Below, one piece after another: positions 4,401 through 11,992 of a stretch of 13,883 nt of DNA. The translations under genes and the position numbers were made by a program. The notes below the pieces were generated by a model. It was not told where the DNA came from, made no database searches, and worked only from the letters and a program-made list of their open reading frames with translations. Each line of letters starts with the position of its first letter. The stretch's first letter is position 1. The stretch lies in the UHGV virus genome UHGV-0131300; one strand, 5' to 3'. Source of the DNA: a virus.

Positions 4401-4840
4401 ACCTGCCGCCCAGAAAGAAGCCTTTAATCTGGCTGGCCTGTTAGCAAATGTTAACCCTTACAACCTGTCAAAACCTGACATTCATCGCCGCGCCGTTGCG
4501 ACAAATGACGACATTTTAGAGGCGTTTTCTGGGCTGAGAATTGGGCTGCGAATCCTAATAAATCCTAAGTTTTTTTCGCATTTCGTGACCAGTACGCGCG
4601 AGAAAGTTTTTTCTGACAACACTACGCCAGTGGAAAATTATTCCGCTGTCTTGAGTTTTCGGAGCATTACGCGCCCGTCTGGGGAGTTTTCGGACTATGT
4701 AAAAAAGGGCAGTACCTACAGGTCAGACCACCAGCAGGAAAATCAGTGTTATAGTCCCAGTGTTGCTGCAAAATCAGCAACCGGGCGTGGAAACCCGAAC
4801 ACACTCAGGGCGACACAGACGCCGAAAGCGTCTTTTTTTG
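4401..4840 (+). ncRNA. Candidate non-coding regulatory RNA or leader region ending in an intrinsic terminator
   Basis: No credible coding signal despite an open frame. Direct repeat gagttttcgga at 4653..4663 and 4684..4694; hairpin gttgctg/cagcaac at 4762..4781; terminator gacgc-cgaaa-gcgtc plus T7 at 4818..4839. Confidence 0.35.
4818..4839 (+). terminator. Rho-independent terminator inside the non-coding region
   Basis: gacgc (4818..4822), loop cgaaa, gcgtc (4828..4832), then ttttttt (4833..4839). Confidence 0.75.
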
Positions 4841-5028
4841 TGTCCGTTCACTACGCACATCAAATCAGCGGCCTCGTCCGTACTGTATCTATGGTGGCGT
4901 TAGTGGGGCTACGTTCGCGTAGGCCGGTTTCCTTTGTGTCCGGTATTTCCACCCCTGCTAACGTCACCGCCATTTCAGAGCGTGGAAACTCAGGCGGTGA
5001 CTCCTTAAACACAAAGGAGGCTGCCATC

Positions 5029-9213: not shown

Positions 9214-9232
9214 AACTTTTACGGCGGCACTT

Positions 9233-9478
9233 ATCCCTACTGCCCTACTAAAAACGAGACGAGGCCAGACGTAGCAAGGCTTTAAACTAGGTAGGGATAT
9301 ATATTTTTATCCCTACTTATCCCTACATATCCCTACCAAATAAAACAGGCAGTAAAATGCCGTTGAAGTGATTTAGTAGGGATAAGTAGGGTTATGTAGG
9401 GCAACAAAATTGAATGCCTACCAGTCTGAAAGCCTTGCCATTCGTGGCCTGAGCCAGTTAGTAGGGATTGGTAGGGAT
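9233..9478. repeat. Iteron array (putative replication origin): about 10 copies of GTAGGGAT / ATCCCTAC at 10-bp phasing around an AT-rich spacer
   Basis: atccctac at 9233..9240, 9309..9316, 9319..9326, 9329..9336. gtagggat-type copies at 9291..9298, 9376..9383, 9386..9393, 9396..9403, 9461..9468, 9471..9478. Lies immediately downstream of the primase gene. Confidence 0.75.
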
Positions 9479-9530
9479 ATTACACCCCCAAAAAGATTCT
9501 ATGGGGGGTAGCTTAAAACGAAGGTGGGCA

Positions 9531-10274: not shown

Positions 10275-10916
10275 ATGAGTACGCAACCCATCATTATTGA
10301 GTTCGGCAGCTATCGCTGGCCCAGACATCTTGCAATACATGAAGCAGGTCATGCGATAGCCGCATGGTTTTTCGGCATACAGGAGGTAGAAATTGCGTTA
10401 TCGGGTAATAACCGAGTGGCAAAAACCTACCTTAGCGGCGATGTTGATGAATGTGGAGCTGTCGCGGTATGGCACGCCAACTATCCACGGAATGTGGCTG
10501 AGGTTAAGTCTTACACCCTCTCGAATGATGACACCAGGTTACGTCTGATAGACCAGGTATGCCGGGCTATGGTTATCTCTCTGGCTGGTATCGTCGCGCA
10601 ATCACGCTATACGGAGGATGATATTGACGCACTGATGGAAACGTCCGGGAAAGCAGATATGAAAAATGTTCGTGATTTATCCGAGGTATACCGGGTAGCT
10701 GGTGGGGAGGACGCCGATATACAGCGAATATCCCTTTCCCGCGCTCAGGCGCTGATTACCCTGAAATGGTGGGATGTTATCGCGCTGGCGAAAATACTGG
10801 AGAACCGTAACCATATGCCCGCCAGAAACTTCCAGCGCATTATGGGCGATATCGACAAGCCTGTACCAAAGCCTCTGACGCTGGCTGAACTGGATGAATT
10901 GGTGGGTGAAGAATGA
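10275..10916 (+). CDS. HExxH zinc metallopeptidase-like protein (FtsH/M41-like HEAGHA motif), no AAA+ domain
   Basis: Motif HLAIHEAGHAIAAW near the N-terminus matches the FtsH protease-domain signature HEAGHA. gaggg SD before ATG 10275 (track start 10197 rejected). The protein is only 213 aa. Confidence 0.65.
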   Translation: MSTQPIIIEFGSYRWPRHLAIHEAGHAIAAWFFGIQEVEIALSGNNRVAKTYLSGDVDECGAVAVWHANYPRNVAEVKSYTLSNDDTRLRLIDQVCRAMVISLAGIVAQSRYTEDDIDALMETSGKADMKNVRDLSEVYRVAGGEDADIQRISLSRAQALITLKWWDVIALAKILENRNHMPARNFQRIMGDIDKPVPKPLTLAELDELVGEE

Positions 10917-11263
10917 AGCAATACATTCTGGCAGCCTGCCTGATCTCCTCTGCACCGGCACTATCTGCTATCCATTGTGGGGGCTTTACAATACAGCCAG
11001 ATCGTTATCGGACAACGATTAACGGCGATGTGGTTCATATTATTGATGCGCAATTTTACGGCGCGCCGCGAGACTTTAGCCAGGCCGCCATAAAGTTATT
11101 GCCTGATGCCATCACCACTACCGACAGGCAATACCGCCTGGAGACGCAGGGAGGCAATGCTTCGCTGGAGTTGATGACCAGAGAGCAACCGCCACGCGTG
11201 CTTAATCGTGAGCGCTGCGATTCCGGGCTAACAGGCTTTTACTGGTACTCGTCTGTGCCGTGA
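10913..11263 (+). CDS. Small secreted protein (Sec signal peptide)
   Basis: N-terminus MKQYILAACLISSAPALSA has the positive, hydrophobic and AxA pattern of a signal peptide. ATGA overlap with the peptidase gene. Confidence 0.6.
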   Translation: MKQYILAACLISSAPALSAIHCGGFTIQPDRYRTTINGDVVHIIDAQFYGAPRDFSQAAIKLLPDAITTTDRQYRLETQGGNASLELMTREQPPRVLNRERCDSGLTGFYWYSSVP

Positions 11264-11389
11264 GGTTCGCACCGAACGCAGGCTAAAATACTAGACTGTT
11301 CTTGACAGATTTTAAACCCTCGTAGCGCTAAACCCGCGCCAGCAGAGGGCTGGAAGCCAGAGCGTGATTTAGGCCGTCCAGAATATTCA

Positions 11390-11505
11390 GGTTCGCGCCA
11401 CTGGTTCGCAGTGCGCAAAATAGTGCGCAATTTACAGTAAAATACGCATATTATTTCGTATTCAATTTGCGCACCGTTCGCAGTTAATGCGCAGTAATTC
11501 GCAGG
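11390..11505. promoter_or_regulatory. Operator-like region: multiple TGCGCA palindromes and TTCGCAG repeats around an AT-rich inverted repeat
   Basis: TGCGCA at 11411..11416, 11424..11429, 11468..11473, 11488..11493. TTCGCAG at 11405..11411, 11477..11483, 11498..11504. Inverted repeat aatacg (11441..11446) / cgtatt (11456..11461) flanks catattattt. A TTGACA sits at 11302..11307. Confidence 0.5.
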
Positions 11506-11515
11506 AGGCCAGCCA

Positions 11516-11992
11516 GTGAGAGACAGAACGCGCAGCTATACCACCGACCTGCCCCGCATAGGGTTGCCATTCCTTTCGCACATGCGTAGCAGGCTGGCGG
11601 ATGCTGAACCGGGTACGCAGCTTTATACCCAGACCGAAAGCGGAACGTTGTATACCTTCCGGCAAGCCGACAGCTACGCCATGACAATCAACGGCGTGAC
11701 GCGGGCGATTCGCACCACAACCACACAGGCCGGGTATGGCGTGCGGGAATGGTACGTTTGTCCCCACTGTATGAAACGGGTGGCGAAGCTGTATATTGGC
11801 AAAAAAGATCATCCGTATGACTTCCCGAAGCCAAAGGGGATGCGCTGGGCTACGTTTGACAGGAAGCGGGCAGAATTATCAGTTATGGAGATGGCTTACT
11901 GGCAGGCATTCAGCCCGGTAGTGGGCAGAATCACGGGCGTTATTGAGCGTAAAGCAGGAAAAGCAGCCAGAGGCATTGGCCTGACTCTATAA
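11516..11992 (+). CDS. Hypothetical protein (158 aa) with one CPHC motif
   Basis: GTG start with AGGAGG SD at 11503..11508. Contains REWYVCPHCMKRVAKLY. No family assigned. Confidence 0.6.
   Translation: MRDRTRSYTTDLPRIGLPFLSHMRSRLADAEPGTQLYTQTESGTLYTFRQADSYAMTINGVTRAIRTTTTQAGYGVREWYVCPHCMKRVAKLYIGKKDHPYDFPKPKGMRWATFDRKRAELSVMEMAYWQAFSPVVGRITGVIERKAGKAARGIGLTL

Follow-up and report, generated by a model that had tools for sequence, protein, structure and literature searches.

A T-N-CGCA-R box array around a putative promoter in an EcCIMP1-like satellite of Escherichia coli, a possible mimic of helper-phage packaging sites

The DNA analysed here, referred to as the window, is a stretch of 13,883 nucleotides (UHGV virus genome UHGV-0131300) that is 100% identical to an island which, in E. 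coli ECONIH4 and seven other genomes, is flanked by yicC and dinD. It encodes a tyrosine integrase, an AlpA-type helix-turn-helix protein, AntA, Ash/Icd, a P4-family primase-helicase and SSB, while its right end contains small genes without assigned function and a gene for a PRiA4_ORF3 protein. Gene order and several proteins are shared with EcCIMP1 (locus L049), a phage-inducible chromosomal island (PICI) that has been excised and transduced with phage Kapi1 (Pick et al. 2025, PMC11773190). Thus, judged by its gene content, the window is an EcCIMP1-like phage satellite of E. coli; the PICI gene set and the synteny with EcCIMP1 both place the element among phage satellites.

Several other features of the element can be described. 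In the ECONIH4 copy (L001 3736-5346), the 321-aa gene and alpA are separated by an insertion sequence of the ISSpu7 family that is absent from the window, and the window thus stems from another carrier of the element. The slot between SSB/PerC and the zinc-ribbon gene described below (or a 61-aa gene) is variable among relatives (L005 2200-6960, L013 2224-6936 and L049 4600-10800), with cargo that in L005 includes a 999-aa protein weakly similar to tape-measure proteins and in EcCIMP1 P22-like proteins for DNA ejection. An Rfam scan of the whole window returned only C4, isrK, c4-a1b1 and int-alpA RNA, all outside the repeat cluster that is the subject of this report, and gave no match at the cluster itself. 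Matches above the gathering score were located at 4749-4974, within the Ash/Icd region, and at 1578-1644, where the int-alpA RNA follows the integrase gene. The c4-a1b1 targets, isrK and C4 antisense RNA of the Ash/Icd region correspond to a P1/P4-type RNA immunity module.

The repeat cluster is located in the right part of the window, directly upstream of a gene encoding 158 amino acids (Table 1). A first-pass annotation had described four TGCGCA palindromes and three TTCGCAG repeats around a central AT-rich inverted repeat, ending at the AGGAGG Shine-Dalgarno sequence of the 158-aa gene, and had suggested tight, multi-site repression of the right-end module, of the kind common for toxic or defence cargo. 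Both repeat counts and the end of the cluster at the Shine-Dalgarno sequence were recovered by position. Its remark that no obvious regulator is encoded nearby also holds, as Pfam found no DNA-binding regulator domain in the genes neighbouring the cluster. Toxic or defence cargo found no support: a search of the downstream genes gave no toxin or defence signal, with PRiA4_ORF3 as the only Pfam match and no match from PADLOC.

Table 1. Features of the repeat cluster and its surroundings (window coordinates).
Feature	Position	Strand	Remarks
Leader segment	11286..11417	+	Duplicated in fuller relatives; in the window, recombination joint of copies A and B
Degenerate box TTCGCG	11392..11397	+	Within conserved GGTTCGCGCCACTGG
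TTCGCAG boxes	11405, 11477, 11498		3 of the window's 4 copies
TGCGCA boxes	11412, 11424, 11468, 11488		4 of the window's 7 copies
Left box set	11405..11430	+	TTCGCAG (11405), TGCGCAA (11412), TGCGCAA (11424); spacings 7, 12 bp
Core CATATTATTTCGTATTCA	11447..11464	+	18-mer; -10-like TATTAT at 11449-11454
Right box set	11468..11504	+	TGCGCAC (11468), TTCGCAG (11477), TGCGCAG (11488), TTCGCAG (11498); spacings 9, 11, 10 bp
Shine-Dalgarno AGGAGG	11503..11508	+	Overlaps last box; 7 nt to GTG at 11516
158-aa gene	11516..11992	+	Truncated member of a 189-203-aa zinc-ribbon family (CPHC...CRxC)

The density of the cluster is beyond that of all 1000 dinucleotide-preserving shuffles, in which the densest 120 bp contained at most four and usually two copies of T[TG]CGCA, compared with seven in 100 bp of the real sequence. 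Over the whole window, TGCGCA and TTCGCAG are not in excess, and it is the clustering alone that is exceptional. All seven boxes are perfect, and the two kinds (four TGCGCA and three TTCGCA) are interleaved at spacings of 7-12 bp. The right set contains a 10-11-bp tandem array, of which a 21-bp unit, TTCGCAGTTAATGCGCAGTAA, is present in one extra copy in a related satellite (L006). In relatives, the middle base of the box differs (TTCGCAG, TGCGCAG, TACGCAG and ATCGCAG), and thus the repeat unit is better written as T-N-CGCA-R, the palindromy of TGCGCA being incidental. Between the two box sets, the GC content drops to 0.30-0.35 (11420-11479), and the aatacg/cgtatt inverted repeat of the first-pass annotation is indeed present there, with arms at 11441-11446 and 11457-11462. 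However, its left arm is not conserved in other lineages, in which the 18-mer at 11447-11464 is conserved instead. Further upstream in the leader, a hexamer pair, CTAGAC-N4-CTTGAC, is found at 11291-11306, the second member of which includes a perfect TTGACA. In other leader copies the pair shifts in concert (TAGTAC-N4-TAGTAC and CTGGAC-N4-CTGGAC), and no -10 sequence matching the TTGACA of this pair was found. The leader has no complementarity of 8 nt or more to the C4-type antisense RNA of the element.

Conservation of the 18-mer was assessed in the regions upstream of homologues of the 158-aa gene at 23 loci of other genera. In nearly all of these, CATATTATTTCGTATTCA or a close variant is located 15-70 bp 5' of the start codon of the homologue. 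The core is identical in most lineages, including Serratia and Erwinia at 38-44% protein identity, differs by one base in Limnobaculum and K. michiganensis (both with TATAAT) and in Symbiopectobacterium, and by two bases in Providencia, where protein identity is 34%. Exact matches to the 18-mer in IMG/VR numbered 21, of which 14 were upstream of the zinc-ribbon family, the contexts of the other seven being unrelated and looking like chance. The core is absent from the phage small-terminase (terS) loci discussed below. A scan for sigma-70 promoters and terminators called no promoter between 11150 and 12250, and a -35 sequence was found in no lineage. The best explanation for 11447-11464 is a putative promoter core, with a -10 but no -35 element, belonging to a satellite-specific zinc-ribbon gene family. 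Since a -35 element is lacking, a factor bound at about -37 to -32 would matter for its activity.

The zinc-ribbon family is widespread in Enterobacterales. The 158-aa gene has undergone an in-frame internal deletion and lacks 45 amino acids, including the second CxxC. Searches with the zinc-ribbon protein yielded no Pfam family, no phage homologue, no informative structural match and no recognisable DNA-binding fold, and its AlphaFold model has a pLDDT of 83. Relative to the core, the boxes occupy preferred offsets that are roughly 10-bp-phased (-35, -23, -16, +21/22, +30/31, +41/42 and +51/52), and a single box just 3' of the core recurs in distant lineages. The boxes thus straddle a promoter-like core, so that any protein bound there would affect transcription. 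To this extent the operator reading of the first-pass annotation is partly supported; however, the boxes are not private to this promoter, as arrays of them are also present within phage terS genes, a place in which a promoter would not be expected.

The phage arrays came from a three-box pattern scan of IMG/VR, which gave many chance hits in GC-rich contigs and from which only hits beside terS or satellite genes were used. In the phage contigs, 6-8 boxes are found in the 5' part of terS, directly before terL and the portal gene. A first sample comprised 79 terS genes of the type MAKPDWG..GISPKDWCEAQGLNYATARRYIKKP. In all 79, T[TG]CGCA boxes accumulate at +120 to +190, where two 30-bp bins together contain 342 of them. 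A second group is located at +330 to +480, and almost none were found elsewhere in the gene. The arrays contain 4-7 boxes, the number changing in 9-bp steps, and the hexamers and spacing classes of the left box set of the window recur in them. Spacings in terS are 9, 12, 14 and 7 bp, compared with 7, 12, 9, 11 and 10 bp in the window. At terS residues 40-70, 77% of the alanine codons are GCG, compared with 21% in the remaining gene. Three reading phases are represented among the boxes, with aTGCGCAcTGCGCAg, for instance, coding for M-R-T-A-Q, and the arrays are kept in contigs of 37%, 46% and 58% GC despite differing linker peptides. The terS arrays are evidently constrained as DNA rather than as protein. 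Named relatives include Escherichia phage PHB10 and several Klebsiella prophages, and about 940 of 5426 complete E. coli genomes have a terS of this type.

A second sample of 78 further terS loci was retrieved by the N-terminal domain alone, and in these, too, the hexamers form arrays at +120 to +190. Where the recognition helix reads ..ARRYIKK, the top hexamer after the domain is (C)TGCGCA (51 of 51 loci), and where it reads ..AKRYIK(V/I), the top hexamer is TGCGAA/TTCGCA, often as TGCGAATTCGCA (27 of 27), although these loci are phylogenetically non-independent. The pairing holds across TerS bodies of 235-343 aa. Other helix-turn-helix variants have other repeats at the same position, namely GGTACGCA in Klebsiella phage ST11-VIM1phi8.3 and GATCATGA in Stx phage P27. 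In the terS of phage P27 (L167 1620-1700), four GATCATGA repeats, each with a Dam site, are found where others have TGCGCA. The Dam sites in these repeats of an Stx-converting phage recall the Dam-regulated hexamers of the P1 pac site.

The pairing of box and helix is the pattern that would be expected of a DNA-binding domain and its cognate site. The pac sites of headful phages such as P1, P22, SPP1 and the staphylococcal phages are located in or next to terS. Taken with the pairing, this makes the TerS-binding part of a pac site the simplest reading of the phage arrays, which are therefore candidates for that role. A literature search on these boxes or on this pac site returned nothing relevant.

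Fuller relatives of the satellite provide a further connection to terminase. In E. coli S43 (L003) and STN0717-20 (L002), the leader is present twice, in each case as a shared sequence of about 100 bp with boxes after it. A 125-aa gene follows copy A, and the zinc-ribbon gene follows copy B. Window positions 10901-11417 match copy A (L003 5022-5538, 94%) and positions 11286-11809 match copy B (L003 6001-6524, 90%), and the alignment to S43 resumes from window position 11810 after a gap of about 137 bp. Thus, the window derives from recombination between copies A and B, with loss of the TerS-like gene. By sequence comparison, then, the window copy of the module is degraded, with the terminase-like gene lost and the downstream gene truncated. 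Since no terS-like gene is found in the window, the cluster itself is not located within or next to one.

The 125-aa family (L003 5599-5976; L002 8599-8976), which is not represented in the window, has the conserved sequence GWGGKR.GAGAP.GNTNAVKHGERS. In hhalign (93.8%, E=1.8e-7, 85 columns) and in blastp (43% over 49 aa), the protein resembles the core of the 933W/RothD-type TerS without the N-terminal helix-turn-helix, and it is a candidate packaging-redirection protein of these satellites. Box arrays precede the 125-aa gene in seven of the eight distinct leaders examined, and the satellites with arrays 5' of this TerS-core homologue include L002, L003, L053, L078 and L084. The hexamer before the 125-aa gene depends on lineage, being TACGCA, TGCGCA or TTCGCA in Escherichia and Klebsiella and GTCGGA in Serratia. 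In one satellite (L078), 94 nt of the leader can be aligned at 84% identity (E=2e-21) to the box region in the terS of Klebsiella phage ST11-VIM1phi8.3. In addition, ACGAAAC(C/G)GATAC, which in terS encodes the conserved ETKPIRG, is kept in many satellite leaders. No TerS-type helix-turn-helix was found to be encoded in the satellites. A BLAST search of the window leader against 50,697 phages gave chance-level matches only, and what this leader has in common with phage terS is boxes and spacing classes, with no extended alignment.

The reading that we put forward, and to which we give an even chance, is that the boxes are recognition boxes for a helper terminase and form a pac-site mimic around a promoter. 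The seven T(T/G)CGCA(G/A) boxes would be recognised by the N-terminal helix-turn-helix of the TerS of a widespread group of temperate enterobacterial phages, and the mimic would allow the helper terminase to assemble on satellite DNA. Since both the -35 region and the leader of the downstream gene are overlapped by boxes, bound terminase would also affect the expression of that gene, so that TerS on the boxes would alter the output of the zinc-ribbon gene as well as packaging. We infer three steps here, namely that the phage arrays act as a pac site, that TerS binds the satellite boxes and that this binding drives packaging. The satellite boxes match those that accompany a TerS DNA-binding domain, which suggests TerS binding. 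Because the same boxes are present in terS and co-vary with the terminase DNA-binding domain, a terminase subunit of a helper phage is the likeliest binder, ahead of any dedicated repressor. The packaging reading is supported by the identity of the boxes with those of terS arrays, the constraint at the DNA level, the co-variation with the helix, the homology between leader and terS, and the presence of a TerS-core homologue beside the arrays in relatives. Counting against it, the experimentally mobilised relative EcCIMP1 lacks the zinc-ribbon/box module, which is thus not essential for the family, and the preferred offsets from the core and the recurrent 3' box fit a transcriptional role at least equally well. 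Further points against it are that the leader of the window shows no extended alignment with phage terS, that the TerS-like gene is gone from the window, that the co-variation counts are phylogenetically non-independent, and that a concatenated query, reporting one place per record, found no resident terS of this type in the genomes that contain this exact element.

A more elaborate form of this proposal, which we consider unlikely, is that the array is a dual-specificity terminase trap and sensor, in which TGCGCA boxes for the ARRYIKK TerS are interleaved with TTCGCA boxes for the AKRYIK TerS at 10-11-bp spacing. Because the two kinds are interleaved, two classes of helper could package the same satellite, and because the boxes wrap the zinc-ribbon promoter, helper TerS arriving late in infection would switch the gene. 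If so, a protein with a structural role in packaging would also serve as a signal for transcription, and the TerS helix-turn-helix with its adjacent array would be a portable specificity cassette, moving between terminase bodies and into satellites.

The main alternative is that the boxes are operators of a regulator that controls the zinc-ribbon promoter, their likeness to terS arrays being convergent or due to a shared specificity. The regulator would possibly be the zinc-ribbon protein itself, by autoregulation, another satellite protein or a host protein. We regard this as doubtful. In its favour, the -10 core (TATTAT/TATAAT) is conserved and its distance from the start codon varies little, the lack of a -35 element would give weight to a factor at about -37 to -32, and the boxes keep the preferred offsets listed above. 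The T[TG]CGCA boxes accompany the zinc-ribbon family in Serratia, Limnobaculum and Erwinia too, and in Serratia the TerS-like gene has a different kind of box while T[TG]CGCA goes with the zinc-ribbon gene. A terminator-like hairpin 5' of the leader in one Serratia locus (L018) suggests an independent transcription unit, and the layout is like that of the in-phase repeats around the promoter core in plasmid R1 parC and in the omega-repressor heptads. A purely transcriptional role, possibly autoregulation, thus remains a serious rival in view of the phased offsets and the Serratia box distribution. On the other hand, no DNA-binding regulator is encoded next to the array to serve as its cognate regulator, AlpA is encoded 8.5 kb away and the zinc-ribbon protein is without a recognisable DNA-binding fold. 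AlpA was rejected as binder, as the intergenic region just upstream of alpA contains no boxes. The distance from box to -10 varies among distant lineages (19, 22, 16 and 29 bp), and the core is retained with almost no boxes in L005, L008, L013 and L019. Moreover, a private operator leaves unexplained why the same boxes are present within the coding sequence of terS in phages, in co-variation with the helix-turn-helix of TerS. That the boxes belong to a recognition code of terminases in a common group of phages is, on comparison of these loci, both more specific and better supported than the operator reading.

Two other explanations bear on the fate and the possible replicative role of the cluster. 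The boxes may be relics of a captured terS fragment that are functionless in a degraded copy of the element, as the loss of the TerS-like gene from the window, the 45 amino acids missing from the downstream gene and the remnants of terS coding sequence in the leaders would allow. This is quite improbable, however, given that the seven boxes have all stayed perfect and persist in non-coding DNA, where decay would be fast, that the 21-bp unit is expanded in relatives and that box positions are conserved across genera. Least probable is that the boxes are iterons around an AT-rich unwinding region bound by the primase-helicase, or parC-like partition sites. Such a role would fit a 38-bp AT-rich centre with a set of direct repeats on either side, but a separate, classical iteron array is located immediately after the primase gene, at about 9230-9480. 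About 12 GTAGGGAT/ATCCCTAC iterons, in both orientations, surround an AT-rich core there, and this region is the probable replication origin. In relatives, the iterons follow the type of primase (GTAGGGAT, GAGACAAC or GAACCAAC), GAGACAAC and GAACCAAC going with two TOPRIM-DUF927 primase variants, whereas the T-N-CGCA leader is the same in all three. The origin reading of the cluster was rejected because the separate iterons next to the primase co-vary with primase type and the cluster does not. A centromere is contradicted by the result of the Pfam search, which found no partition ATPase and no ParR- or ParB-like gene.

EcCIMP1-like satellites are common in E. coli and its relatives, and the identity of the boxes would have consequences beyond this element. 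If they are terminase sites, the arrays would provide, in silico, a probable pac site for a prophage group present in roughly one-sixth of complete E. coli genomes. The helix-turn-helix-to-hexamer code would then predict which helper moves which satellite, and the truncated TerS homologue would be a new kind of packaging-redirection protein. If the boxes are ordinary operators, the cluster would be a routine regulatory region of a degraded accessory module.

Repeat-flanked promoters are found in other systems. The promoters of plasmid R1 parC/ParR and of the pSM19035 omega-repressor heptads are autoregulated and flanked by repeats. Like these, the cluster has a promoter core flanked to its left and right by helically phased direct repeats, and includes adjacent 7-bp units in either orientation. 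In contrast to these systems, neither a partition gene nor a ribbon-helix-helix protein of the ParR or omega type was found here. Among satellites, EcCIMP1 has the same backbone and gene order as the window, including PRiA4_ORF3, the 119-aa gene at the terminus and a 61-aa protein (WP_000188903.1) that is identical in both. EcCIMP1 differs in having neither the zinc-ribbon gene nor the box cluster, and its P22-like helper Kapi1 has an Sf6-type TerS. A stretch of the Kapi1 terS, TTCGCGACAAGTACGCGA (L251 18875-18892), has two short matches of 14-18 nt in EcCIMP1 (L049 2358-2375 and 4112-4125), each of which alone is at chance level (E=2.7); one is located just after the PerC gene.

In phage P1, the pac site spans about 160 bp of pacA, where a central region for IHF and cleavage has four TGATCA/G hexamers to one side and three to the other. 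The cluster resembles it in having two sets of short hexamers (three and four) around an AT-rich centre, and the phage arrays described here are likewise in the 5' part of the small-terminase gene. It differs in its hexamer, which has no Dam site, and in its centre, in the window a putative promoter core whose conservation does not depend on the boxes.

Satellite mimicry of helper packaging sites is already known, with precedents in PLE/ICP1 and in the cos sites and Rpp of EcCICFT073. In PLE, a Vibrio satellite of phage ICP1, a single 14-bp pac mimic was shown to be necessary for transduction (Boyd and Seed, 10.1101/2024.04.22.590561). The proposed likeness consists in a satellite without a complete terminase that copies the packaging site of its helper, together with satellite proteins that modify packaging; the difference is that the putative mimic here is a seven-hexamer array overlapping a promoter. 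EcCICFT073 is a Gram-negative PICI with two packaging sites, cos1 and cos2, and with Rpp, which pairs with helper TerS (Fillol-Salom et al. 2019, PMC6739421). Its sites are of the lambda cos type, and a search for lambda cosN found none in or near the cluster, with only chance-level matches of 2-3 mismatches elsewhere. Rpp mimics the DNA-binding domain of TerS, while the 125-aa protein resembles the TerS core, and the window itself lacks the 125-aa gene. In its two copies of the packaging site, however, EcCICFT073 parallels the fuller relatives of the window, which have two leader copies and a TerS-core homologue.
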